Source: Pecten maximus (lineage: Eukaryota). Taken from it: a DNA stretch of 64,000 bases. Location: contig NC_047021.1 of the NCBI RefSeq assembly GCF_902652985.1, positions 43,958,001-44,022,000 of the forward strand, read 5' to 3'. The notes under the pieces were generated by a model. It searched no databases and had not been told where the DNA came from. It saw only the letters and a list, made by a program, of their open reading frames with translations. The translations under genes and the position numbers were made by a program. Shown here in pieces: positions 28,901-50,526 of this stretch (its first letter is position 1; each line of letters begins with the position of its first letter).

Positions 28901-30742
28901 GTCTTGCAATCCACCATATCTTGTGATCCACCGCGTCTTGCAATCCACCACATCTTATGATCCACTACGTCTTGCAATACACCAAATCTTGTGATCCATC
29001 GGGTCTTGCAATCCATCACATATTGTGATCCACCAAATCTTGTAATCCACCACATATTGTGATCTAACGTCTTGAAATCCACATCTTGTGGTCCACCACA
29101 TTTTTCAATCCACCACTTCTAGCAATCATCCATGTCTTATTATCCCTTGTGCCGTGTGATGTCTTGACTTGTTATGTTTTACATTTCAGCCACTGCCCAG
29201 GAATGAAGTAGAACTAGGGGAGGTAATTCATAACTTTTCTACATTCTGATTAAATGCCTGTGATTTTGTTCAGGACAGTAACACTTTGTTATATATATAT
29301 ATGTATAGATTTTCTATGATTTTATGGTTTGTGGGAATATCTTGTGTACAATGTTGTGCAGCTGTGTATCTACAGACTTACAAGGTCTGATTTTAATATC
29401 AGACTTATTTGTAATTTTCAGTTTACTCCCCGCATTTGACGACAATTGTTCAAAATGATACAAAGAAAAAGACTATACACAGAGGTGTAATTTAGTAGGA
29501 TACAATATTAAAATCTCTGACATAGGTTAGCAAGGGTCAAGCTGTATATTTAAATATCTCTCATAATATCATCAATTTGAATCTTAGATTCTTTCAAATT
29601 ATGTTTTTCTTAACAAAATATCAAAAACATACACAAAATGTATTTTATTGTGAACTTCATTGTTTGATTGAGCATTTCCTGGAAGATTTTATAAAGATGG
29701 ATTAATCAGGAATTGTTGTTTTGTTCCAGGGAGATTCTGCATTGAGTGTGCAGGCTCAGCGCCAACAATTGCTGAGGTTCCGAGAGGACGGACCAACGCG
29801 ACATGAACTGGCTAATATGTTCCACACGACCAAACATCAATGGTACCCAAAGTAAGTATATCTGTCTTCTACATTAAAATATATACGTAAGTTTTATGGA
29901 GAACATTTCTAGAACAATACATGTGAGGACTCAAATTAATGTTATCTGAAGAGTTATCTGGTACCCAAAGTAAGTATATCTGTCTTCTACATTAAAATAT
30001 ATACGTAAGTTTTATGGAGAACATTTCTAGAACAATACATGTGAGGACTCAAATTAATGTTATCTGAAGAGTAAGATCCCAGACAACTTGTGGATTTGTG
30101 TTGATAAACAGGAACCAAGCGTCACTGGTTGTAAACAAACATCTGTTGTAAGAATTCTCCTTCATTGATTTATGACTGTTCCTGAATTTAAATTAGAAAA
30201 TACACTGTATACAAGACGATTCTAGCTGGACTCATATATTACAATGTAAAAGGCCTAGCAACCACATGGACTTAATATTACAATGTAAATACCATTTTCA
30301 TACATTCATCAAGGATGGGGTTGCCATTTTAACCAAATGTTGGTCTAACCCCTTAGTTTAACAATTGGCTTTTAAACACATGGGGGAGTGCCCTAATTCA
30401 TCTAGACTGTTTTCAACACACGAGGCCACATACTACAGCAAAAATACTTTGGGCAATTGTATGAACCTTAATCCCCCTATAACTGAAGGTTAAGTACACT
30501 CCCCCCTATAACTGAAGGTTAAGTACACTCAAGTTGGTACCCCATTCCAAATCAGTCGGAGACCTCAAGGTACAGAATCTTTTAAATATCGTATATTATA
30601 CAACCACATGAAAATGCCATGGGGAACAATATATTGTGGTAAGTTCGTGTAGTATACAAGTTGTATTTTTTTTCTTTTTTTTTTCAGTACGGCAGACAAG
30701 TACAGGAAACCCAAGCCACCAAAAGATCGTGAAGCAATTTGA
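25994..30742 (+). CDS. MRPL42: Mitochondrial ribosomal protein mL42 (MRPL42/MRPS32 family), 142 aa, 6 exons
   Basis: Exons 25994-26057, 27196-27259, 28413-28503, 29190-29222, 29730-29851 and 30688-30742 are all GT-AG and in frame (429 nt). The protein has an Arg/Ser-rich presequence-like N-terminus, then TGTIVCFHPEPVYPYEYTLPLPR, DGPTRHELANMFHTTKHQWYP and PKPPKDR. These match human MRPL42 motifs (TIVCYHP..PYEHTKP, LSKMFFTTKHRWYP, PPKDR). AATAAA at 30755. Confidence 0.93.
26216..26244. mobile_element. 29-bp palindromic micro-transposon with 7-bp TSD
   Basis: CAGAGACCTATATA-C-TATATAGGTCTCTG, flanked by ATTAAAC on both sides. Confidence 0.8.
28868..29130. repeat. Degenerate ~17-bp minisatellite in MRPL42 intron 3
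   Basis: Repeats of TCTTG(C/T)(A/G)ATCCACCACA. Confidence 0.8.
29841..30073 (+). repeat. 118-bp tandem duplication spanning the MRPL42 exon 5 donor
   Basis: TGGTACCCAAAGTAAGTATATCTG...GTTATCTGAAGAGT is present at 29841 and 29959. Confidence 0.95.
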
Positions 30743-33617: not shown

Positions 33618-36600
33618 TCAAGTGTCCATTGGTTTGTCCGTGCTAGGTTTGGTGTCAGCGGTCTGGTTAAGTGTGGACTGGTGTGCAGAAGAAGTATCCA
33701 TCTTGAGAACTTCGCGGAGAGCCATGGTCGCATAGCAAGCTGGCGGCAGTGTCATCACCAGTTTCAGGGCCTTCAGAGCAGCACCTGCAACATAGGGTTA
33801 TCGGCTTCAAAATTTGATGTAAAAATAAATACACAATCTACGATCCAGGTTTTCAACTGTCAGCAAACAAGAAATGAGTTGGACTGCATATTTCTGAGTG
33901 CAAGATGATACAATTTTTGTATCCTCTCCAAATTCATTTAAATTAATTTTACATACAGATGGATAGGAAACATGGTCCTTGGAAATACACAATCTTAATC
34001 AGGATTTCTTTGAATCTAAGAAATCACAATTTGTTTTTTTCACTTTTTAATACCACCCCATCCCTTTGGTTTTGTTTGTTTGTTTGTTTTTGTTTAACGT
34101 CCTATTAACAGCCAGGGTCATTTAAGGACGTGCCAGGGTTTGGAGATGGAGGAAAGCTGGAGTACCCGGAGAAAAACCACCGGCCTACGGTCAGCACCTG
34201 GCAACTGCCCCACGTAGGTTTCAACCTCGCAACCCAGAGGTAGAGGGCTAGTGATAAAGTGTCGGGACACCTTAACCACTCGGCCACCGCGGCCCCACAC
34301 CACCATTCCTATGTTATCGAAAGACAAACCTATCTGGTAGACGACTATCATGCTACTACAGTGGTTTTCCAGACCAGACCTTGCTTTATAGTTGTAATTA
34401 CTCATTAGAATTCCTTGCAAAATTTTAAGAAAAGAACTACTGGTGATTTTTTTTTTTTGAGGAGTTCAAATATATCAATTGAAACAACATTCAACAGGGG
34501 CTAATCTAGGATTTGGAGAATACTACCCATTATGAAATTTAGGGGAAATGAAGGGGCCAAAGTGTCTTGAGTTATTCTTTAAATTTTAACATTTGACAGC
34601 TATAATTTGCTATAATTCTTACATATTTCATCAAAATTTGAGGGATTTCCCCTCTTTTGGAAAACTTTTCCCCGGTTTTATGGCATTTTTTCTTGATGGG
34701 GAATTTGTTTTTATTCAGTGGGGAATACTAACTAATTTCAGTTGTAAAAATGGTCTAGATTAACATCTGTTCAATGTGGATGAAGACTCGGTAACCAAAA
34801 AATGCAGGTTCACAAGATCTACCTGGTATAGACTTTGGTTCAGACATGCCCTCGAGCCTGTCAACGTCGCTCAGCACTAACGGCAGCGTCACATCGTCAT
34901 ACTTGTAGATCTGCCAGGTGACGTCCGTCGGCCGAGCCAGCATCTTCCTGTACGTCCCCTTCAATGTGTACTGCCTGGTATAGAAAACAGAAAATGCGTG
35001 ACGAGACTGATGATAGAATCGATTCCACAGATATTCAGTGTTTGTTTACAACTTTCTTGTTAAAATAGTATAGACTTATTATAATACAACAATTGCAAAA
35101 CAATTTATCAACTGAAATTAATTACTCATGTTGGCACAGATGGAAGGTGCGTGAGGGGTTTCACTATTGGAGGAAACTGGATACATGGAGTACCCAGAGA
35201 AACTTACATGGTCATGTCGGTGATACTCCTTCATTAAGGCCTAGGAGATAGCAAATGCATTATAACTGGTTCACCATCCGACCACAACTTTTTATGTATG
35301 ACATTTAAAGGTTTTTTAAATACACTGGTTGTTACACATGGATGTACACACTCTACCTTAATCCCTTTTACGCTTTCTTACATTATCAAAACATGTACAT
35401 CATATTTCTCTCTTCAATAACTTGGCAATTATGTTACAAAATAAACATTGACAAAATCAATAACTGTTTATGATAATAGAAAAGAAACCAGGGTAGATTA
35501 AAAACCAGGAAAAGTGTCCAAACGATGGGCAGTGGGGAAAGTGTCCGAACGATGGGCAGTGGGGAAAGTGTCCAAACGATGGGCAGTGGGGAAAGTGTCC
35601 GAACGATGGGCAGTGGGGAAAGTGACCTAACGATGGGCAGTGGGGAAAGCGACCTAACGATGGGCAGTGGGGAAAGTGTCCAAACGATGGGCAGTGGGGA
35701 AAGCGACCTAACGATGGGCAGTGGGGAAAGTGACCAAACGATGGGCAGTGGGGAAAGTGTCCGAACGATGGGCAGTGGGGAAAGTGACCTAACGATGGGC
35801 AGTGGGGAAAGCGACCTAACGATGGGCAGTGGGGAAAGTGTCCAAACGATGGGCAGTGGGGAAAGTGTCCAAACGATGGGCAGTGGGGAAAGTGTCCGAA
35901 CGATGGGCAGTGGGGAAACAGACCGCACGATGGGCAGTGGGGAAAGCGACCTAACGATGGGCAGTGGGGAAAGTGACTGAACGATGGGCAGTGGGAAAAG
36001 TGACTGAATAATTATGAGACAACAATTAGATGAAACCTCTGGTAATGTGCAATTTAGAATATGTACTAACTTGTTTTTATGTCGGAAACTCTCTATAGTG
36101 AGTTTATCCTTCTCCAGAATCTCCGTAATCCAGTCCTTTGCTGTGAAACAGAAGGAAAAACTTTTACTATGTAATATCTTGACTTGTGATATATAACTAA
36201 GTAAAACTTCGTAATTTGATAGTGTGTTCAGTAATAACAGTTAGTGGCTTATCATTTCACTATACTAGTGCTGCACACGACGAAAAGATCAAAATATACG
36301 CAAAACAAGTGAAACATTTTTATTCTATATATATACCTTACACATATATTTCCATATTCAAACATAAAAAAATCACATGAATTTTAAAAGAGTACTTGAT
36401 ATTAAATCAATATAGGAATCTATTAGTATCATATTTGATATCATTTATCTAATATGAAAATTCCCTGTCATCTCACCAAAAAGTCTGTTACTTATTTAAA
36501 AGCCAGGAAATTATCATTTTGTAACATACCATAAATATCCGGCAATAACCTCATGTCTATAAATAAAGCCCATGTCTGTTGATAAGCCAATGTCTGTTAA

Positions 36601-39600
36601 TAAGCCCATGTCTTGTAATAAGTCCTTGTCTGATTTTAAGCCCATGTCTTGTAATAACTTCTTGTCTGAATATAAGCCCATGTCTGGTAATACCATGTCT
36701 GTTAATAAAATCATGTTTGATAAAAAGCCAATGTCGTGTAATAAGCCCATGTCTGGTAATAAGCCCATGTCTGGTAATAAGCCCCTCCATATATATACAA
36801 TGCAGTCCAGCCAAAATGCTAACAAATATCATAATTTCATTGTCCAGCAATAATCCTCGCCTTTTCTTTGAGTCAAAGTATGGTGTTGGTCCCCTGGGCT
36901 TACAGCAGAATAAATATGGTATCTTTTAATCCTTGAATTGCAAAAATTCTGCGAATACTTTTTTATGAAACAGATGGATATTTAATATACAATGGTCCTA
37001 GCTATCATATAATCATTTTGACATATACATTATAACCTACCAGCATTCTCCGGAAACATCACATCGTAACCGGGAATCGTCATAACAACATCGTAAATTG
37101 TGTAGTCCTTGATGTTGGACTCGTTCACTACGATGGGCTGCATCTGGAATCTTTTCCCATCCCCCTCATCCTCATCTGGAAACAGATAATGTGACAGATA
37201 TGTAAGAGTTTTTATTACAAAACACAAACCTGAAGAAATCATTCTCCAGCTGTCATTAAAGATCCATTGCGATTGCCCAGCAGATTGACAAACCTTGAAC
37301 TAGTAACAAGGCCCATGTCAGTTCCAGAATTGTTTTTATCAGTGTATTTGCCATTACTCCTAGAGTGCCCCTTTCCCTATACCTATTGTTAAGATTTTTC
37401 TGTAAAAATGAACCCAACTCTATTCCTGACCAGATAATTAATAACAATTATTTACTGATGTGTGACACAGTTATCACCCCTACACTGACCACTGAGAAAA
37501 AGCTGAATTTTACAATTTTTTTTATTTCCTATTTTAGCAGCCTAGGTGCTAAAGTACTTTGGAACCACCAGATTTTTTAAGCTTTAAAACTTTACCGTAA
37601 TGAACTCAAATAAACTGGAGTGTTATCAAATATGAATGATATGTGTTAAAATTGTCAAAATGATTATTTTCACTGAAAACTTTCTACTGATTTGAACTGA
37701 ATCATCTAGGATTATCATAGTTTCAGCCATGGACTGTTATTAATTCTGACTTTATAATGGAGGGCTATTCCATTAAAATATCTACCTGACACCATGACTC
37801 CACAATAAATCACTTTTATCCATGGTTGGATTGCCTTCCTATAACCACAATTCAATTTGTTAAATAAATTCTACAATAGGTGGTGCCCTATAACCAAAGC
37901 ACTTTTATCTCCCATTCTATGACTGGATACCCCGATGGGTACAGACGGTCCCAGCATACCTTCATCTCCGTCCAGACTCTGCTCCATATCTGCGGACTGT
38001 GACGGAAGCACTAGGTCTCCTTTAACTGGCCTCATCCCGAACTCATGAATCCGGCGTGACACAACACAGTTCCATATATAGCTCTGGTAACTATGGAGAT
38101 ACATCAGCCGTGTGTTCCTCGGTATCTACAGAAAAAAAACATTTCACACAATAAAGTGTCTCCGATTACTGAATATATTCATGGCATTGGTTTGTGGTTT
38201 GGTTTGTTTTTGTTTAACGTCATATTAACAGCCAGGGTCAATTAAGGATGTGCCTGGTTTTGGAGGTGGAGAGGCGGAGTACCCGGAGAAGAACCACCGA
38301 CCTATGGTCAGTACCAGGCGAGTGCCCCACTTGGGTTTTGAACTCGCCATCCAGAGGTGGAGGGCTAGTGATATTCATGGCATATGTTATAGTCTATTTC
38401 AAATATGTTACTTGCTGTGTGAGGTCTATTTTTCATGCAGTTATAGCTTTTGTATAAAAGTGATAGTAACAGAAGCCAAAAAAAAAAAAAAAAGTTTTGT
38501 TCTCAGGCCAATTTTTTTTCCCCAAAATGGATGCAAAAGGGAGGCATATTTTTTTTCATTTTACACTTTGGATTTTCCTCTAACCTACCAAAACAGTGTG
38601 TCTCCCTAAATACCCTTAAGGACACCACATACTTTCAGTCTGACTTACCATTCCGAAGGCCCCACAAAAATTCTTGCTGTTCTTTTTGAGGCCAGTGAGG
38701 AGGGTGCGTTCTATTCCGTAACGTTTGGGGAAGGACTTCAGGGCAGCGCTACAATCCCGCTTTTCCCACCACAAACGACGACACTCTGCAATATCTCCGT
38801 GTTCTGGAAATTATCACACATAGATTATCATCAAATCCATCATGTCTACGAAAACCATTGACTTCGAAAGCTAGTGGATCCTCTGCTTGTACAACATTTT
38901 CACACTACAATTCCTCTAAAAAGAATTTTACACTCTTTCCTATTGATTATAAATGATGATCAGTTTGTTTTGTTGTTTGTTTGCTGGATTTATCATCCCG
39001 TGAACAGCAAATGTCATTTTGAGGCGGAGTCTCCTTGTAGTAGTTGGTGACAACTCACTGCACAACATACGAGAGACCCGCCACATGCAATCCAGATCAA
39101 TTAGGTTAAAGTGTCTTGCCCATGAACACAACCATGACAGTACAGATCAGCAAGTTTCTCCCCCTCCTGAGATCCAACCACACAAATCGGATCTTCACCT
39201 GAGATTACGTGGCCAGGCACTCTTACCGACTGAGCTATCGTGGCCCCCAGGACAACGATCAGATTGACTTACTCATCGTTTAACATCAGTTCATCTGATA
39301 ATTGACTGTAATTTTTTTCACAATTGATCACTTTATATAAATACTTCCACAAATTTCAAAGTCCATATATACAATAATATCCATAATAAGGATATCCATT
39401 GTTGAAACAGTTCATTCATAAATTCAAATTCTAGCTAAGTAGGGCATTAAAGTTAAATTCACAACATAAATAAATATAATATGACTGCAACCAAGAATGT
39501 ACATTTTCTAGATATAGAACGAACAGTTAGCTAATTATGAAAATCAATTAATTACATCGGAAGGCCTTTCCAATCATAATTGATTTAATGGTCTGTGAAT

Positions 39601-42600
39601 TTGCTACCAGCATCCCATCACTACTTTTTGTAGGTAAATAACTCAGTGTAATATGACAATAATACCTACCCCATAGTCGAGGTTTCATGATAAGATTCAC
39701 CGTCTCCTCCCACTCACTGTTAAGTACCGCCCTGTAAAATAAACGTCATTATCTTGTATCCAAGTCGTGATTATAATACTTTTAGTAGTCAATCTTATCT
39801 CTCATCAAAGGAATCCAAACTTCTCTGATTCTCAATCTTTTAAGACAAGTGTAAAAGAATCCACGTGTCTGGATTGCTGTGAATTTGTTGATTTTCAGGA
39901 ACGATTATTTTAATTCAAATGACTTATTGGTAATCGGGTAAATCATTGCCAAAATACAATTCCAGCCGGATCCTGGCACCCACAATTGTAAAATCGTTTT
40001 GTTCTGAGTTGTAAAATTCATAATTACATTTCTTGTAATTACATTACACTGAGCACAATAATATCAATTCTATTTTGAATGATTCAAACAGTTATTAACT
40101 TTTTCTGAATTTTTATCGCTGAGTTTGTAACCGCCCATACTATACATACCTTCCTATATGGTACGTGGGAATGGTTGTGGTGCCGAATCTCTGCATTCCA
40201 AAGTAGTTGATGAAGCCGTAGTCACGAAGAGAGGCCAGTGATTGGTTGATCTTCGTGTCGTCAGGCTCGGTTACATTTCTGTCACAACAAAACAAGAGGT
40301 CAATGGGACCTGTACTGCATAAACATGTACTAGATCTATTCTACAAAATGAAAATAAATTAAAAAATAATTAAACACTAGATTTTCTTCTGAGGAATTTT
40401 GATGGCAAAATCTTTGTATACATTAGCATGTTATTAAGATCCTGACAGTTCCTCTGACTGCAAGACACAAGGGTTATCCTCATACACATTCTGATTACCT
40501 CCCTTGATCTGGCACCATTGGCCCCTGGTCAAATCCATGTATATTAAGAGTTAAATAAGAATGTATGCAGACTGTGCATATCGTCTTACATTTTTGTATC
40601 TTTAATTTATATATATATGTATACAAGTACATGTATACTGGTAGGATCATTGTTAAAATTACGTAAGTATCAACTTAAATATCTTACTGCAGGACAATTA
40701 AAAACTTGTTTGTCTTAATGTAGGACAATTAAAAACTTGTTTATCTTATCGTAAGACAATTGAAAACTTGTTTATCTTAATGTAGGACAATTAAAAACTT
40801 GTTTATCTTACCGTAGGACAATTAAAAACTTGTTTATCTTACTGTAGGACAATTAAAAACTTGTTTATCTTACCATAGGACAATTAAAAACTTGTTTATC
40901 TTACGTAGGACAATTAAAAACTTGTTTATCTTACTGTAGGACAATTAAAAACTTGTTTATCTTACCATAGGACAATTAAAAACTTGTCTATCTTACCATA
41001 GGACAATTGAAAACTTGTTTATCTTATCGTAAGACAATTGAAAACTTGTTTATCTTAATGTAGGACAATTAAAAACTTGTTTATCTTACCGTAGGACAAT
41101 TAAAAACTTATTTATCTTACCATAGGACAATTAAAAACTTGTTTATCTTACTGTAGGACAATTAAAAACTTGTTTATCTTACTGTAAGACAATCTAAAAC
41201 TTGTTTATCTTACCGTAGAACAATTGAAAACTTATTTATCTTACCGTAGGACAATTGAAAACTTGTTTCCACATATCTGCCCAAGCCGCAGAGGTTTGTC
41301 CACATATCTACAATCACAAGCAAGTTTCATGGTAAACAGTTCAATTTCTTCGTGATTACTAAAATGGCTGCTGCATCACTTTTACATGTAACACTATTGT
41401 GGGTTAAAGAATCGTAGAATCTGTTAAAATTCGGAAATGTGTTAAAATTTGAGTGTGTCAAATAAAGCACGCCTACAGTAGCCCTTTCAGTGTTTTTCTA
41501 TTGGATCGTTAAAACAGTCTTTGTCTGTTTAAATTAGGAAAATAAAGTTATATTTTCTTAAAACGGATAATATCTTTTTTTAAAAATTCATTTTGTGAAG
41601 ATAAGCAATCTGATTAAAATTATCTGTTTATGGCTCCGTTGACTTGGTACTACGCCTGAACATCTGAATGTGCCCCAATCAGGGTCACGTCCTGGTGACC
41701 TTTAGAGTATCCAATCAGGGGGACGCTGGCAAAAACCACGACAGCGAATCGGAATACCATAGCTGGTAGCTAAATGCAGAGGGGTATCAAACGTAGTCTG
41801 TTTTCAAAACAAATATGGTTATCTGATTGGTCAAAATTTAATGAGTATTTACAACTTGAAAGGTCACCTGGACGTGACCCTGTTAGGGGCACATTCAGAT
41901 GTTCAAGCGTAATACGAAGTCAATGGAGCCATGAACAGATGGTTTTAATCAGATTGTGAAGATAAGTCACTTTTTATCTCGAGAAAACAGTCTGTCTCAG
42001 ATGTAAAATCCCTGACATTACCTGTAGTCTCCCAGTTTCATATTCCAAAGCGTTGGACTGACAGCTTCCAGTTTTTCTATCCGTAATCTGAAAGGAACAT
42101 TTACATGTACGTGAATTGGATTTGTTCTTGTATACAAATCATATGGTGTAATTTATCAGTAGTAAACATAGAAAAAAATAACTTGTTCACAATTACATTG
42201 TATAACATCAAAAAGATCCATGATGACCATTTATGATCTTAATTATCAAGTGAATATCCTATTAGTTGCCTGATCTGCAATATCCAAAATACATTCATGG
42301 TCCGTGTTTTAAGCAGGTTTAAAAAATGGGCGCTCAATTCATGGTCCATGTTTTAAGCAGGTTTAAAAAATGGGCGCTCAGATATGATTCTGAATCTTAT
42401 TAAAAAAAAACAGAAAATGTCAATAAGACATAAATGCTCCTGCTGCCACTTGACACCCTGAAACAAAATTGTTGAGGATTGCATCAGCAGTTTATGGCGG
42501 GGGCATAAAAAAAAGAAATATATCACAACACACACAAGACCTTATGAGCTGCATCTGACAGATCAAAGTACCTCAATTCAACGGAGACTTACTTGAAAGC

Positions 42601-45600
42601 GGTAATTTCTTGTGTAGTTTTGGCCCGTCTGTCCTTGGTTCCACCATACTGGAAGATTCCCTTGTTGACACTAAATCAGACAAGCAGTGACATGTCAATA
42701 TTCCTCATCATTCATATTGGTCAATTAACGTCTACAACTCCTCTGTACCAGTCTAGCATAAAATGGATACTGTAAAGTCACTTAATTTTATTGTAGTCCG
42801 AATGGGATATGAATGAATCTACATTCGTTTGTGTAAATTCTGGTTGAACATTGCACATATTTGGAGATGTATACAGTTGTTGAATGAAATATTTGCGATT
42901 TCTTGAAAATAACACTGCATAATTATATCATTTACGGTTAAAATTTCTTAACAATCAGCTCAACATGACATAAGCTAGTTAGGGCTGTTCTAGGAAAACT
43001 TATATGGAACGGGGGGACAGTACTTTAATAAAATCACATCGATGGATTGGTGGGGTTTGAAATAAATTTATTCTGGGTGTATCTGATATTTTTGTACCAT
43101 TTTTTACATTAAAATTGCTTCTATACCAGGGTACCGTTCACAAAAAACTGGATATAAGGGAGGGTCATACAAATTTTAAATCCCCCGTCCCCTGTGTGTT
43201 TTCCTGGAACAGCCCTTAGGGCTATTCCAGTAAAATATCTACCCCACCCCAGGACTCCAGGTTTGGTTAAGGGGTACCACCTATAGAATATATTTAACAA
43301 ATTACAAAGAAGTAATAGTAAGGAAATCCAACCACGGATAAAAGTGATTTATTTTGGAGTCTTGGGGTCAGGTAGACATTTTAATGGAAAAGCCCTTATT
43401 GTTTTACCACCTTCATGACTCCACCTACTGAGCATGACAGAATCAATACAACTTGATCCTTACAACGAAAAGTATTCACACAGAAACCTGTAACAGACAC
43501 TGGAGGACTCGTCCCTGACCAACTTCTACTCAACCAGGCTTATTGAGTCTGAGCAAGAAAAACTTTTTTCTCTGAAAACTTGGCGCTGACACAGGAATAT
43601 GATGAAACTCTCATCATTTACAGGAAGGCCTGAGAGTGAACCATGCAGCTTTCTCATATACTCCACAGGGAGATCCTGTGGTTGCTCGGAATCGGATAAA
43701 TTGATGTCACATTGGGTAGAGAAAGACAACAGCTGGAATGTGCTATATTGCCAATCATAATAGTGTAACGTCATCATTTATGTAGTGTAACCACGTCACA
43801 AACTGATGACATCATTAATTACGATGCACATTTGATGGGATGTTGATGATGGTGAGATGGTTTCACAACACTTTACATTCCGTTACTTTTTTAAGTAGAG
43901 TTGTATGTGAGAAAAATAATCAAACATGGGCCTGTGCCATGAATATGTAACCCTGGTAAATACTAGCTGCAATATACCGCTCGGCTAGAGAGATCTTCTC
44001 TTTAGCTCGATCGGTTGAGTGTAAGACTAGTAAGCCAGAGGTCCCGGGTTCGATCCCTAGCGGAGGCAGTGATTTAAATTTAATTAATCATGCGCTCTGT
44101 TACATTGGCGCCCACGTAGGGACTCGGGAATGATACTCATCGCTGCTTGCGAAAGCATCGCTGTTACCCCTGGAAACTCGAGGACGAGTTCTTTCCTGGA
44201 GGGGGAGTATGTAACCCTGGTAAATACTAGCCGCAATATACCGCTCGGCTAGAGAGATCTTCTCTTTAGCTCGATCGGTTGAGCGGGAGAATAGTAAGCC
44301 AGAGGTCCTGGGTTCGATCCCTAGCGGAGGCAGTGATTTGAAATTAATTAATCATGCACTCTGTTACAGACAGGGATATCTCAACCCTTGTGTAAGATTT
44401 TGGCCATTCAGCACTTTACAAACCTCATGATGACCAGCCAAACTCTTACATTTGGGTTGAGATGTCCCTGTCCACAGCACGGGCCAATGTAAGATTCTAT
44501 TAATCTAAATCTCTCCCATCTTCGCTAGCCACGGCTTCTGATTATGTTACACTCCACGAACCCTTGGCAGATATAGTTGTGTTTAAACTGTCGCGCCCTG
44601 AAATCCCAGGTTATCCAATCAAATCACGTTTTACATTCTGGCTTGGTTTCCCAGTAAACAAAAATACAGAGACATACAATCTTTGGGGAAACATTCGCAG
44701 TGTTTGATAAATCCATTTAAGTTATTGATCACATATCTCATCGAAATGACACAAGCCTCCATGTGTGTTTGTTAATATCACTGATGAAGTAAATTGGTAA
44801 CGCTCGTTGTGATTGGTCGAAAATTTCATGCGTAAAGGGTGGTAATTTTGAATCTCGGCTAGAGGGCAAGAACTGTCGCCTATATCTGCCAAGGGTTCGT
44901 GGAGTGTAACGTAATCAGAAGCCTTGGCTAGCGAAGATGAAGCGAAGATGAATCTATCCATACAGTTGAGACAGATGCATTACTTACTGTAACATATGAG
45001 CAAGTTTAAAGATAGCATCCATAGTGTCTTTGTTTTCCTTGTAGAGGGTGAAGCGACAGTAATCACCTTGTTCACCAGACCAGCGTCGTTTTCGATGATG
45101 CTTCCCATGGCGATGACCCGGATTACTTTTACCTGAAATCAAAAACATGAAACTACTCTTTAAATCTGTATCTTAGAACAAAGATGAGATGTCTAGAGGA
45201 AAACTCAAAAGAAATAAATATATGAAAATTTCACTGTGTTGAATTGAAGAGGAAAACAACTTGATATCTAAATGAACCCCCAATTATTATATAAATGGCT
45301 ATACTGTATTTGACCCAATATACCCAGTGTGCACTTACAAAAACACAAAAGGAAGCTCTTACTAAAACCATGTAAATTTTCCATATGAAATGAGTGAGAA
45401 AATCTTTTTTTCCATTTATATATACAATGTATATTTTTCATGGTTAAAAGTCTGAAGGTTACATTAGCAGATTAGTAACATAAAGATCTATTTATATGTT
45501 TCAATTATAGCGCACCTGTCCACTTTTCCTGAAAAAAGGTGGGGTGAACTTATAGGGGCAAATGTGAATATTAAGTGAAATATGGTATATATATTTGTCA

Positions 45601-48600
45601 CATTGTGTTCATGAAACTAAGGCACTGTGCATGGTGCATGATTAAATAATTATATATCATCCCCAACAAATCAGGACGTTCCCTTGACCAACACCTATTT
45701 ACATACCTAGTGTTAGTTAATATATACTATTAAGCCTGAGTACAGATCTCTGTATACTCTTTATTTGACAATATATGAAATAACCCTATCCAAGGGTTCA
45801 TGAAATATCTTGTGCATGACCTTTGACCTATAACCTGGATCGATAACAGCAAAATCTTCTCAGGTGTAGACTTTCATGGCATGATGTTTTGGTAAGAATA
45901 AGAACTTAATCTGACCCGAGGGTTCATGACAAAACTTTTACACAAGCTTTTCATGGACAATTCATGCACACACAGTGATTATACTAAATACCCTGTTTAG
46001 TGGAAGGTAAAGTCACATAAGTTAAATTAAAAAAAAAAAAAAAAATTATCCACAGTAGTATCTTTGTTATATAGTGTAGAAGACAATAAGACAAGATAGG
46101 TTCAGATCATAATCACCTTTCTTAGGAGGAGGTATTTTTTTCACTTGAATGACTTTCTGTCCATCCACATCCATAGTGGTACTTTCCAGGTTAGGAAAGC
46201 ATGTCCTTATGGCCCTATGAATGCCACATCTCTTTTCCTTGTCATCACCTGCCTGTAAGTCAATATTTCATGGTTAATGTATGGTATGAGGTTCCAGGTT
46301 AGTTTGACAGAATCTGTTGTTAATATTTGTGATTTGATATCTGGTTCAAGAATTTACGGTAAATTGAATTGACCCAGATAAAATTGACATTTATGTTTGA
46401 ACCTTCTCTTGTTAAACTGGTACGCACCTGAAGGTTGACTGTCAGAGATGTGTCTGTAGAGAGAATGAGTTTGTTGAGTTCATCTACTTCAGCATCAGGA
46501 AGCTGACTGCACTTAATGGGTTCAACAGGCTTTACTTCTGTCTCAACCTACAAGACAAAACTCAAAAATAGCAAATACAATACTGATGACAATAGCAAAT
46601 CGTAAATAGTAGCTAAATATTAAACTAATGACTGGGACAATAGCAATTAGCAAATAACTAAATAGCAGCTGACGATTAAACTGATGACCGAGACAGCAAA
46701 TTGCTAAATAGTAGCTAAATATTAAACTAATTACTGGGACAATAGCAATTAGCAAATAGCTAAATAGCAGCTGAAAATTAAACTGATGATCAAGACAATC
46801 GCAAATTGCTAAATAGTAGCTGAATATTAAACTAATGACTGGGATAATAGCAAATAGCTAAATAATAGCTGAAAATTAAACTGAAGACAATAGCAAATCG
46901 CTTCATATTGTCATGCTTGTATGATGACTTTGTGTTTACCCATGATAATTTCTGTATAGTATACTATTTAGATCACAGAACATGTATAAGCATAACTGAT
47001 TTCTGACCTTTTCAACTTTGACCTCTGAACTAAGACTGCATTAGAGACTTCTAACTTTGTAAGCCTTGACATTTGTACATAATATATTTAAATACATTAA
47101 AACATTAGTGATTTGTGACCTTTTCAACCATGACCGTGTTTATACTTAGACCACATAAGTGACCTTCAAACTTGTCAACTTTGACCTCTGTACCTATAGA
47201 CCACATTACATGCACAGTATATGTGACCTCTGACCTTGTCAACCATGACCTCTGTACTTGTATTAGACCACATGTACGGTACATGTATTGTATGGGTTAT
47301 CTCTGACCTTTTCAACCTTGACCTCTGTACTTACACTACCGTACACGTAAAGTATGGGTACATTCTGACCTTGTCAACCTTGACCTCTTTACTTAGACCA
47401 GAGTATATGTACAGTATAAGTGACCTTCAAACTTGTCAACTTTGACCTTGGACCACAGTACAAGTACAGTATGGGTGATCTCTGACCTTGTCAACCATGA
47501 CCTCTGTACTCGGACCACAGTACATGTACAGTATGAGTGATCTCTGACCTTGTCAACCTTGACCTTGGACCACAGTACAAGTACAGTATGGATGATCTCT
47601 GACCTTGTCAACCTTGACCTCTGTTCTTTGACCACAGTTGGACCACAGTTGGACCACAGTACAAGTACAGTATGGATGATCTCTGACCTTGTCAACCTTG
47701 ACCTCTGTTCTTGGACCACAGTTGGACCACAGTTGGACCACAGTACAAGTACAGTATGGGTGATCTGTGACCTTGTCAACCTCATTCACCTGAATTTCTG
47801 TTGGTGGAGAATTCTTGGTGGTTTCTGTATCTTGTACCGAGTTGGCCGTTTCTGTATCTGGTACTGACTTGTCGGTCTCTGTATCTGGTACTGACTTTGT
47901 GGACAAAGTTTTCAGATGAACTACTTCTCCCTTTTCATTTACTTCATTCACAATGAAATCTGAGAATCTGAAAGATGAACATGTTGTTTCTTGTTTTGAA
48001 TATGACCTTTGCTTTTCAGTTAAGAATACAAAGTCTGACTATGTATCCTTATTTAAAAACTGAGAGATCAGGACAAAAATCTCCTAAATATAGGAAATTA
48101 ATTGATAGAAGCTACTTGCATTGTTAACCAGATCCTGTATGGACACTTGTATAAATTTAAACCATACCCTGTATAAACTGAACACTAGTAATTTATAAAC
48201 CAGACCATGTATAATTTTAACACCTGTATAAACCAGACCCTGTATAAACTGAACACTAGTAATTTGTAAACCAGACCATGTATAATTTTAACACCTGTAT
48301 AAACCAGACCCTGTATAAACTGAATACTTGTGTAAACCAAACCCTGTATAATCTTAACACCTGCAGGGCATCCAGTTGACCCTTGACTTTTAGCAATTTC
48401 AGAAACCAAATCACCATTTCTCAGAAATATGAAGGGTCAAAACATGTCAAATAGACATGCTCCTCCAATCTCAAGAGTCAAATCTGATTTTGGAGAGTCA
48501 AAAACATACTCTCAAGGGTATACTGGATGCCCTGACCTGTATAAACCAAACCCTGTATAAACCAGACCCTGTCTAAACATGGCACCTATAATAAATCTTA

Positions 48601-48842
48601 TAAACAGTGATATTAAACGTGTTACTCTACCTCTGTTTTATGATGCCTTGAAAACCTGGTAAATCACTAATGAAGGCCAGTATTCCGACATCTGTCTCTT
48701 TAAAATGTTCCACTTCTTCAATATCATCTTTTGAATTCTGAACCTCCTCTGATTTGATGGCATCTTTGGAAGCAACACCGTTTCCATTGCCCTCTTCAAA
48801 TTCCAGCTTCATTTTCTTTTCTGCTGGCTCCTGTCCAGCCAT
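33618..48842 (-). CDS. PUS7: Pseudouridine synthase 7 (TruD family), 677 aa, 16 coding exons
   Basis: Exons (minus): 48842-48631, 47967-47790, 46547-46428, 46252-46117, 45132-44988, 42670-42593, 42087-42022, 41307-41245, 40278-40150, 39731-39670, 38803-38649, 38125-37960, 37175-37041, 36140-36071, 34974-34823 and 33784-33618. All are GT-AG with consistent phases, 2034 nt in total. Motifs: [33 protein letters not shown], catalytic [60 protein letters not shown] and [13 protein letters not shown]. Confidence 0.96.
34065..34296 (-). mobile_element. Full-length V-domain tRNA-derived SINE
   Basis: The minus strand reads GGGGCCGCGGTGGCCGAGTGGTTAAG (A box), GGTTGAAACC (B box), GGTTTTTCTCCGGGTACTCCAGCTTTCCTCC (V domain), then a (CAAA)n tail. 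Confidence 0.92.
35505..36008. repeat. 21-bp G-rich minisatellite, ~23 copies, PUS7 intron 14
   Basis: The core AACGATGGGCAGTGGGGAAAG is separated by TGTCC(A/G) or (T/C)GACCT. The translation repeats MGSGES(V/D)xT, so the true period is 27 nt (~18 copies) around a 21-nt invariant core. Confidence 0.9.
36545..36785. repeat. Degenerate 18-bp minisatellite
   Basis: Unit AAGCCCATGTCTGGTAAT. Confidence 0.88.
38188..38372 (-). mobile_element. 5'-truncated V-domain SINE
   Basis: Homologous to 34065-34260. Confidence 0.85.
38962..39250 (-). mobile_element. CORE-type tRNA-derived SINE
   Basis: The minus strand has head GGGGCCACGATAGCTCAGTCGGTAAGAG, CORE-like GGGCAAGACACTTTAACC and a (CAAA)n tail. 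Confidence 0.85.
40681..41268 (-). repeat. 31-bp minisatellite (19 copies) built from the PUS7 exon 8 3' end plus donor site
   Basis: The minus-strand unit is AAACAAGTTTT(C/T)AATTGTCCTACG|GTAAGAT. The first copy is the real exon end (NKFSIVLR). Confidence 0.95.
41606..41956. mobile_element. Mutator-like MITE (~105-bp TIRs, 10-bp TSD)
   Basis: Ends are CAATCTGATTAAAA... and ...TTTTAATCAGATTG. TGAAGATAAG is duplicated at 41596-41605 and 41957-41966. Confidence 0.9.
42982..43395. mobile_element. Two adjacent PIF/Harbinger (Tourist-like) MITEs: 42982-43215 and 43219-43395
   Basis: TIRs are GGGCTGTTC..GGAAAAC/GTTTTCC..GAACAGCCC and GGGCTATTCCA/TGGAAAAGCCC. TTA occurs at 42979, 43216 and 43396. 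A fragment of the second family is at ~37762-37840. Confidence 0.85.
43925..44490. mobile_element. Palindromic MITE interrupted by the TRIM at 43946-44368
   Basis: The left arm ACATGGGCCTGTGCCATG..[TRIM]..GACAGGGATATCTCAACCC mirrors the right arm GGGTTGAGATGTCCCTGTCCACAGCACGGGCCAATGT. Confidence 0.75.
43946..44368 (+). mobile_element. TRIM (miniature non-autonomous LTR retrotransposon) family 1 with tRNA-like sequence in its LTRs
   Basis: 159-bp LTRs at 43946-44104 and 44210-44368 (TGTAAC...GTTACA, 9 differences). PBS TGGCGCCCACGTAGGG at 44106. PPT GGAGGGGGAG at 44198-44207. A/B boxes TAGCTCGATCGG and GGTTCGATCCC lie inside each LTR. Confidence 0.92.
44517..44950. mobile_element. Mutator-like MITE (~60-bp TIRs, 9-bp TSD)
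   Basis: CATCTTCGCTAGCCACGGCTTCTGATTA...GCAGATATAG is inverted at 44880-44939. The flanks are AATCTCTCC and AATCTATCC. Confidence 0.85.
46575..46900. repeat. Degenerate tandem repeat next to the PUS7 exon 3 acceptor
   Basis: Recurring CAATAGCAA..GCTAAATAGTAGCT..ATTAAACT blocks. Confidence 0.75.
47000..47782. repeat. Degenerate minisatellite starting at the PUS7 exon 2 donor
   Basis: Recurring CTCTGACCTTGTCAACCTTGACC...GGACCACAGTACAAGTACAGTATGG units of variable length. Confidence 0.85.
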
Positions 48843-49189: not shown

Positions 49190-50526
49190 AAGTCAAACTC
49201 CCACCAGCCTACACTAATCACATGACTGTCAAACTCCCACAGGCCTACGCTAATCACATGACTGTCAAACTCCCACAGGCCTACGCTAATCACATGACTG
49301 TCAAACTCCCACCAGCCTACGCTAATCACATGACTGTCAAACTCCCACCAGCCTACGCTAATCACATGACTGTCAAACTCCCACAGGCCTACGCTAATCA
49401 CATGACTGTCAAACTCCCACCAGCCTACGCTAATCACATGACTGTCAAACTCCCACCAGCCTACGCTAATCACATGACTGTCAAACTCCCACAGGCCTAC
49501 GCTAATCACATGACTGTCAAACTCCCACAGGCCTACCCTAATCACATGGCTGTCAAACTACCACAGGCCTACGCTAATCACATGACTGTCAAACTCCCAC
49601 CAGCCTACGCTAATCACATGACTGTCAAACTCCCACCAGCCTACGCTAATCACATGACTGTCAAACTACCACAGGCCTACACTTATCACCTGACTGTCAA
49701 ACTCCCACCAGCCTACGCTAATCACATGACTGTCAAACTCCCACCAGCCTACACTAATCACATGACTGTCAAACTCCCACAGGCCTACACTAATCACATG
49801 ACTGTCAAACTCCCACCAGCCTACGCTAATCACATGACTGTCAAACTCCCGACAGCCTACGCCAATCACATGACTGTCAAACTCCCGACAGCCTACGCCA
49901 ATCACATGACTGTCAAACTCCCACAGGCCTACACTAATCACATGACTGTCAAACTCCCACAGGCCTACACTAATCACATGACTGTCAAACTCCCACCAGC
50001 CTACCCTAATCACATGACTGTCAAACTCCCACCAGCCTACGCCAATCACATGACTGTCAAACTCCCGACAGCCTACGCCAATCACATGACTGTCAAACTC
50101 CCACAGGCCTACACTAATCACATGACTGTCAAACTCCCACCAGCCTACGCTAATCACATGACTGTCAAACTACCACAAGCCTACGCTAATCACATGACTG
50201 TCAAACTCCCACCAGCCTACACTAATCACATGACTGTCAAACTCCCACCAGCCTACACTAATCACATGACTGTCAAACTCCCACAGGCCTACACTAATCA
50301 CATGACTGTCAAACTCCCACAGGCCTACCCTAATCACATGACTGTCAAACTCACACCAGCCTACGCCAATCACATGACTGTCAAACTCCCACAGGCCTAC
50401 CCTAATCACATGACTGTCAAACTCCCGACAGCCTACCCTAATCACATGACTGTCAAACTCCCGACAGCCTACCCTAATCACATGACTATCAAACTCCCAC
50501 CAGCCTACGCTAATCACATGACTATG
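49190..50526. repeat. 36-bp minisatellite, ~37 copies
   Basis: Unit ACTGTCAAACTCCCAC(C/A)(A/G)GCCTAC(G/A/C)CTAATCACATG. Confidence 0.97.

Follow-up and report, generated by a model that had tools for sequence, protein, structure and literature searches.

Structure of the PUS7 locus and its exon 8 minisatellite

The window (the whole 64-kb stretch of scallop DNA that was analyzed) carries on its minus strand the coding region of PUS7. The gene model has GT-AG boundaries in all 15 introns and an open frame, and its 677-aa product is identical to P0001, which bears the NCBI name Pecten maximus PUS7. Pfam TruD (PF01142) was matched by exons 6, 8, 9, 11, and 12, five of the 10 exon peptides scanned, and the product also contains the TruD motifs GTKD, GNxF, and NYFGxQRFG; domain and motifs together place it in the TruD family. 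The stretch GNxFxIVLR is kept across eight aligned homologues. In exon 2 (window 47814-47897, minus strand) we observed an in-frame 27-bp coding repeat in three copies, encoding SVPDTET-like peptides, at a place where scallop homologues differ from one another. The features of the locus are listed below, with a slash marking the exon-intron boundary.

33618..48842, minus strand: PUS7 (TruD-family pseudouridine synthase) coding region, 16 exons, 677 aa (GT-AG introns, open frame, NCBI protein identity)
41245..41307, minus strand: coding exon 8, 63 nt, 21 aa, whose last 23-24 nt open repeat unit 1 (gene model, Pfam, homologue alignment, RNA contigs)
40150..40278, minus strand: coding exon 9 with the NYFGMQRFG motif, acceptor AG at 40280-40279 (gene model, Pfam, RNA contigs)
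41237..41247, minus strand: true 5′ splice site ACG/GTAAGATA, first intron base 41244 (RNA contigs exit here into exon 9)
40680..41268, minus strand: 31-bp × 19 minisatellite across the exon 8/intron 8 boundary (Tandem Repeats Finder, unit phasing)
40680..41216, minus strand: 13 GT-retaining donor copies and 5 dead copies (unit-by-unit sequence)
41213, 41182, 41151, 41120, 41089, 40996, 40965, 40934, 40904, 40873, 40842, 40811, 40687, minus strand: first G of the GT-retaining copies
41058, 41027, 40780, 40749, 40718, minus strand: dead donor copies
40672..40676, minus strand: AAGTT motif of the unique flank that shares the register of the AAGTT in unit 1 (41264-41260), a candidate seed microhomology (sequence)

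Tandem Repeats Finder placed the array at 40680-41268 with a period of 31, 19.0 copies, 90% matches, and a score of 940. On the minus strand, unit 1 consists of the end of the 63-nt exon, coding ...NKFSIVLR, followed by GTAAGATA. This first unit is the genuine exon end and the remaining copies are intronic, as established from the gene model (the NCBI protein) and the RNA contigs. Because one A is common to the exonic and intronic parts, the unit can be phased as either 24+7 or 23+8; one of the 19 units is 30 bp long. The array accounts for ∼565 of the 966 bp of intron 8. GTAAGA is kept in 13 of the 18 downstream units, and the G of the GT is lost in the other five, where it reads TT (units 7, 16, and 18) or AT (units 8 and 17). 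The true 9-mer, ACG/GTAAGA, recurs in units 2, 6, and 15, and ATG/GTAAGA is found in units 5, 9, 10, and 13, while the −1 G is lost in units 3, 4, 11, 12, 14, and 19. The initial annotation had described a 19-fold repeat of an exon end plus 5′ splice site with 13 GTAAGA copies and five lacking GT; Tandem Repeats Finder and the unit phasing agreed with the repeat, and the count was exact.

Predicted strength and consequence of the downstream donors

We compared the donors by predicted pairing with the 5′ end of U1. The true donor gave −8.2 kcal/mol, seven copies −8.0 to −8.2, six about −4.5, and the five dead copies −1.5. The description of the copies as equivalent U1 sites therefore holds for seven of the 13, which are predicted to pair like the true donor, but not for the other six. 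Since the 15 real donors of PUS7 span −3.1 to −11.9 kcal/mol, a range in which the exon 8 donor is not strong, the weaker copies are still possible donors.

Translation through the true donor gives CGG TAA, as had been noted, and the exon 9 acceptor does lie at 40278. Any later donor joined to this acceptor cuts the 677-codon frame short after codon 333, the stop lying 896-1422 nt ahead of the last junction, and by the usual rule a stop this far before the last junction makes an mRNA a substrate of nonsense-mediated decay. The proposal that distal donors yield truncated or decay-targeted mRNA was thus borne out by these computed products. There was one exception, in which an AG located 31 nt inside exon 8 is combined with donor 2 to give an in-frame product of 677 aa with 11 conserved residues replaced; this acceptor is weak, with a score of 1.4 versus 8.5 on a crude matrix trained on PUS7. 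Its source is an exact 11-bp repeat on the minus strand, present at window 41309-41299 (acceptor and exon start) and again at 41278-41268 (inside exon 8), with a spacing of exactly 31 nt and its end at the array start. The repeat may be due to chance or may be left over from an earlier slipped copy. Acceptor-like CAG sequences in five array units (possible mini-introns of 63-558 nt) and folded RNA hiding the donor copies were also examined, and nothing testable came out of either.

Splicing of exon 8 in RNA contigs

The last PUS7 exon was found in 18 runs from eight studies, all in the form of assembled contigs, and we aligned the contigs of eight runs, one per study, to the two flanks of the array. 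X11 alone is recorded as RNA; the other runs are guessed to be RNA or are unlabeled, though spliced. At the upstream flank, exon 7 was joined to 41307 in 4/4 runs. In X1, X3, and X11, exon 8 ended at 41245 and the letters of exon 9 came next, and a contig piece of X14 also ended at 41245 and continued, the aligned rows listed for it covering the part up to that point. At the downstream flank, the letters preceding the exon 9 acceptor in X7 and X15 were those of the true exon 8 and not of a later unit; the X4 contig ended short of this acceptor, and X10 had no aligned contig. Use of the first donor was thus seen in six of the eight runs, from six studies, at the level of contigs, which represent the dominant form only. 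This matches the strict choice of the first donor that the initial annotation had offered as one possibility, and it agrees with the precedent of human F7 discussed below.

A joint from a later donor was seen in none of the eight runs, as judged from contigs at the array flanks, from which rare and decay-sensitive forms drop out. Contig depth was absent over unit 2 (41200-41233) in 4/4 runs and over intron 8 at 40288-40712 in the downstream-flank runs; because contigs show presence only, these gaps were given no weight as evidence. Later-donor splicing amounting to a few percent or more is compatible with the data, since contigs drop rare forms and decay would destroy later-donor transcripts.

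The contigs also contained a second common exon 8 allele, a synonymous A at −2 on a divergent haplotype, in X3, X11, and X7 (three studies). With the intron side assumed unchanged, this allele is predicted to raise the pairing of the true donor from −8.2 to −9.5 kcal/mol, and it could represent compensation. A low-depth contig of X15 had a G at −3 of the donor, a change that unit 19 also carries; it may reflect exchange of the exon with a copy, or it may be an error. The exon 8 allele positions listed for these contigs (X3, X11, X7, and X15) are window 41246 and 41248.

Origin and decay of the copies

The array units have a mean pairwise identity of 0.91 and fall into 14 distinct types among the 19. 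Units 7-8 are the same as units 16-17, which constitutes a block duplication, and units 4, 11, and 14 are identical; such blocks are expected of growth by unequal exchange. AGATAT is present in both the exon and the intron start, and from the sequence either this motif or the AAGTT microhomology could have seeded the first duplication.

Among the 14 distinct derived alleles over the 31 columns, two lie at the GT (p = 0.23 versus uniform), and two mutations, spread by duplication, account for the losses of GT. We considered whether selection has acted against GT in the copies; these figures do not support it. The commonest changes in the donors are G>A at −1 (8 of 18 copies) and C>T at −2 (4 of 18). 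These are the two products of CpG deamination.

Donor-spanning arrays in other genes

The genome scan for repeats spanning exon-intron junctions that the initial annotation had called for did find more of them, in an MRP-S32-family gene, FANCD2, arrays of contig C1, and an excess of one donor motif. The MRP-S32-family neighbor of PUS7 (Pfam PF10210, presumably MRPL42) has a perfect 118-bp duplication at window 29841-30072 (plus strand) that contains the last 11 exon bases and a GTAAGT donor. FANCD2 (L116-L120 on G000:C7, ∼43.767-43.806 Mb, minus strand) was mapped with two scallop orthologues, 1/39 junctions being dropped as unresolved, and has five donor-spanning and two acceptor-spanning copies among its 38 resolved introns. 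In its 74-bp × 3 acceptor-spanning array, the frame is kept from the last copy alone. For PUS7, the MRP-S32 gene, and FANCD2 together, a tandem junction copy was present at 7/57 donors and 2/56 acceptors, compared with 2.7% and 3.3% of intronic control points in the donor and acceptor comparisons, respectively. The difference between donors and acceptors in these three genes was not significant (Fisher p = 0.16), and the donor rate of 12% is inflated because the genes were chosen for showing arrays.

Among 15 donor-motif arrays from contig C1, four begin exactly at a Pfam-matched exon end (EGF, CUB, trypsin, and cupin), and ∼4 more come after an acceptor and an exon-like open frame for which Pfam gave no match; none of 10 downstream control frames of these arrays had a Pfam match. 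The arrays found behind exons or exon-like frames are as follows.

L038, L039, L043, L044, L046, L047, L048, L050 (G000:C1): long donor-anchored arrays of 7-61 copies behind exons, four of them Pfam-matched
L077, L079, L082, L086, L091, L099 (G000:C4 and C6): arrays whose first unit closes an exon-like open frame, with a Pfam match (WD40) for L091 only

We further scanned 137 peptides flanking the arrays of an 864-kb sample with Pfam, at a low sensitivity that missed PUS7 exon 8 itself. The 82 donor-side peptides gave seven matches (four FancD2, WD40, MRP-S32, and one weak KH) and the 55 acceptor-side peptides one (FancD2); the arbitrary blocks of the sample supplied only the WD40 and the weak KH match.

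Comparison with known junction minisatellites and interpretation

The minisatellite in intron 13 of human CBS reportedly has a 31-bp unit. As described by Borensztajn et al. 2006 (PMC1557585), the most upstream of the identical donors in the 37-bp VNTR of human F7 intron 7 is used exclusively, minigenes with 1 to 12 units showed unchanged donor choice in mammalian cells, and the first donor was also chosen over moderately stronger copies. The scallop array resembles F7 in that unit 1 lies across the exon-intron boundary, the donors are repeated downstream, and the first is used. The F7 array, however, is made of 5-9 copies with 4 exonic bases each (PMC1557585), compared with 19 copies and 23-24 exonic bases in the scallop, where the units are diverged, an in-frame stop lies at intron +2, and the host is a mollusc; polymorphism and copy function have been tested in F7 (PMC1557585), whereas the scallop array is known from sequence and RNA contigs. 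The same paper summarizes minisatellites of like architecture and similar copy numbers (15-25) in human CBS intron 13 and 6-16 (IFI6) intron 2, where one or two further donors are used, and in LMNB2 and PDGF intron 4, where the first is used exclusively (PMC1557585). Unlike CBS and 6-16, the scallop contigs show the first donor alone.

Tandem duplications of exon-intron boundaries have also been described in an invertebrate as lancelet "mirages," with units of 10-160 bp, in Adh3, the globins BflGb6/BflGb9, troponin C, and PGBD5 (PMC3087553, PMC3902484). According to these reports, which treat one gene at a time, mirages are of donor and acceptor types, leave splicing undisturbed, and are suggested to be general in lancelets (PMC3087553, PMC3902484). 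Human repeats have been linked to splicing or gene structure as well (PMC10078293, PMC2812944), and splicing-associated tandem repeats (spl-TRs) likewise lie near splice sites and potentially alter splicing; to be called an spl-TR, a repeat must have a length that has been measured to associate with splicing (PMC10078293). A literature search whose coverage took in few subscription journals gave no genome-wide count of junction minisatellites and no mollusc case. The PUS7 array is a further case of a described class, and the arrangement is not special to PUS7.

We consider it likely that the locus carries a junction-spanning minisatellite of the F7 or mirage type, in which the first donor is used and the copies are neutral passengers and not a control device. 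Such an array would arise by slipped or unequal exchange aided by short microhomology and would expand by unequal exchange, as the identity of units 7-8 with 16-17 suggests. The spliceosome would settle on whichever donor lies closest to the acceptor of the same exon, through exon definition and/or 5′-to-3′ cotranscriptional scanning, so that later copies are ignored. Scanning as the sole rule is disfavored by the FANCD2 acceptor array, in frame only from its last copy, which suggests pairing across the exon and not scanning alone. Any leak would be cleared by nonsense-mediated decay, because CGG TAA comes at once after the true donor, and the copies would erode by ordinary mutation, mostly of the CpG at −2/−1, with no sign of selection at the GT. 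A minisatellite-rich genome would carry many such arrays because duplications of this kind leave the mRNA intact and presumably survive.

The initial annotation had instead raised the possibility that array length is a tunable, polymorphic dial, with the share of later donors rising with copy number, feeding nonsense-mediated decay, and thereby setting PUS7 output. Such a device would make sense of the seven copies that equal the true donor in predicted U1 pairing and of the early stop in every later-donor product, and it has parallels in the one or two further copies used in human 6-16 and CBS (PMC1557585) and in the splicing-associated tandem repeats catalogued in humans (PMC10078293). However, the contigs of six studies show the first donor alone (presence-only data, hence no disproof), and unit number was without effect in the F7 minigenes (PMC1557585). 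In the human genes that do use copies, it is the nearest that are involved, and any length past two or three units would then be immaterial. The recurrence of the arrangement in the MRP-S32 family, FANCD2, and EGF, CUB, trypsin, cupin, and WD40 exons is easier to reconcile with a generic process than with a device of PUS7, and the length itself is known from one assembly. A dial is thus unsupported and, in our judgment, highly improbable. We also regard as unlikely a slightly harmful leak, in which donor 2 would draw a small constant share of splicing whatever the array length, with weak selection for weaker copies or a stronger first donor. Donor 2 does have the identical 9-mer 31 nt downstream, 11 of the 18 copies are weakened (five without GT and six without the −1 G), the allele with the stronger donor is common in the RNA from three studies, and 6-16 and CBS provide precedents (PMC1557585). 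But the GT losses are two mutations spread by duplication and within chance (p = 0.23), the changes at −1 and −2 fit CpG decay, and the nearest copy, which is the most important one, is intact. That the array is a mis-assembled duplication has hardly any likelihood; it is known from assembled sequence alone, but its units are diverged (identity 0.91; 14 types among 19) with nested block structure, and similar arrays occur all over the scallop genome.

With a junction-spanning minisatellite of neutral copies, there is little consequence for PUS7 itself, which is spliced normally. As a class, such arrays indicate that first-donor choice in a mollusc is robust enough to tolerate 13 extra donors, and in practice both read alignment and gene prediction can go astray at junction arrays.

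Frequency of donor-anchored arrays in the scallop genome

We analyzed 864 kb, made up of the window, 200 kb beside it, and three arbitrary 200-kb blocks, and found 324 arrays, 194 of them with three or more copies. The window contributed 33 arrays of period 15 or more, a number typical of the four other blocks sampled. A triple AGGTAAGT pattern with a spacing of 15-44 nt had 11,655 matches genome-wide, 4- to 12-fold more than three octamers matched to it in composition (1,103, 2,794, and 978). The single-copy background of AGGTAAGT was similar to that of the controls (31 versus 34, 24, and 37 in 648 kb). The first 100 AGGTAAGT matches formed 8 arrays over 5.1 Mb and those of the reversed control 12 arrays over ∼89 Mb, which scales to roughly 900 versus 130 arrays genome-wide. 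For GGTAAG (75,580/26,017), AGGTATGT (19,612/8,595), and AGGTGAGT (6,732/2,292), the ratios of pattern to reversed pattern were 2.3- to 2.9-fold. We counted only AGGTAAGT as beyond noise because these ratios do not exceed the 2.9-fold difference between two nondonor controls (2,794/978). A deficit of acceptor patterns (2,675/4,852 and 429/866) was likewise within or near noise. At the level of arrays, donor motifs were not enriched over dinucleotide-shuffled units (GGTAAG, 9 observed and 8.9 expected among the 324 arrays in 864 kb, a comparison of low power), which counts against a hot-spot reading.

Taken together, these data allow the safe conclusion that donor-spanning arrays are common in this scallop genome. 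A neutral rate of 2.4-2.7% alone would give thousands of arrays, given the number of introns, and an excess of donor arrays over neutral is suggested by one motif. A stronger reading is that the PUS7 array is one of about a thousand or more donor-anchored minisatellites and that 5′ splice sites, but not 3′ splice sites, have been amplified several-fold over comparable intronic DNA, making donors hot spots of minisatellite birth or retention; we put this forward tentatively and lean slightly against it. If it were true, the genome would hold a natural experiment on how the spliceosome chooses among identical donors. An excess of donor arrays, if it holds, would suggest that exon ends are subject to some mutational or selective bias. 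It would also provide hundreds of natural F7-like constructs varying in unit length, exonic share, and relative donor strength, with which ordinary RNA-seq could test exon definition versus scanning. Other minisatellites of the window lie at 2-2535, 4160-5169, 35511-36008, 47171-47782, and 49192-50523.
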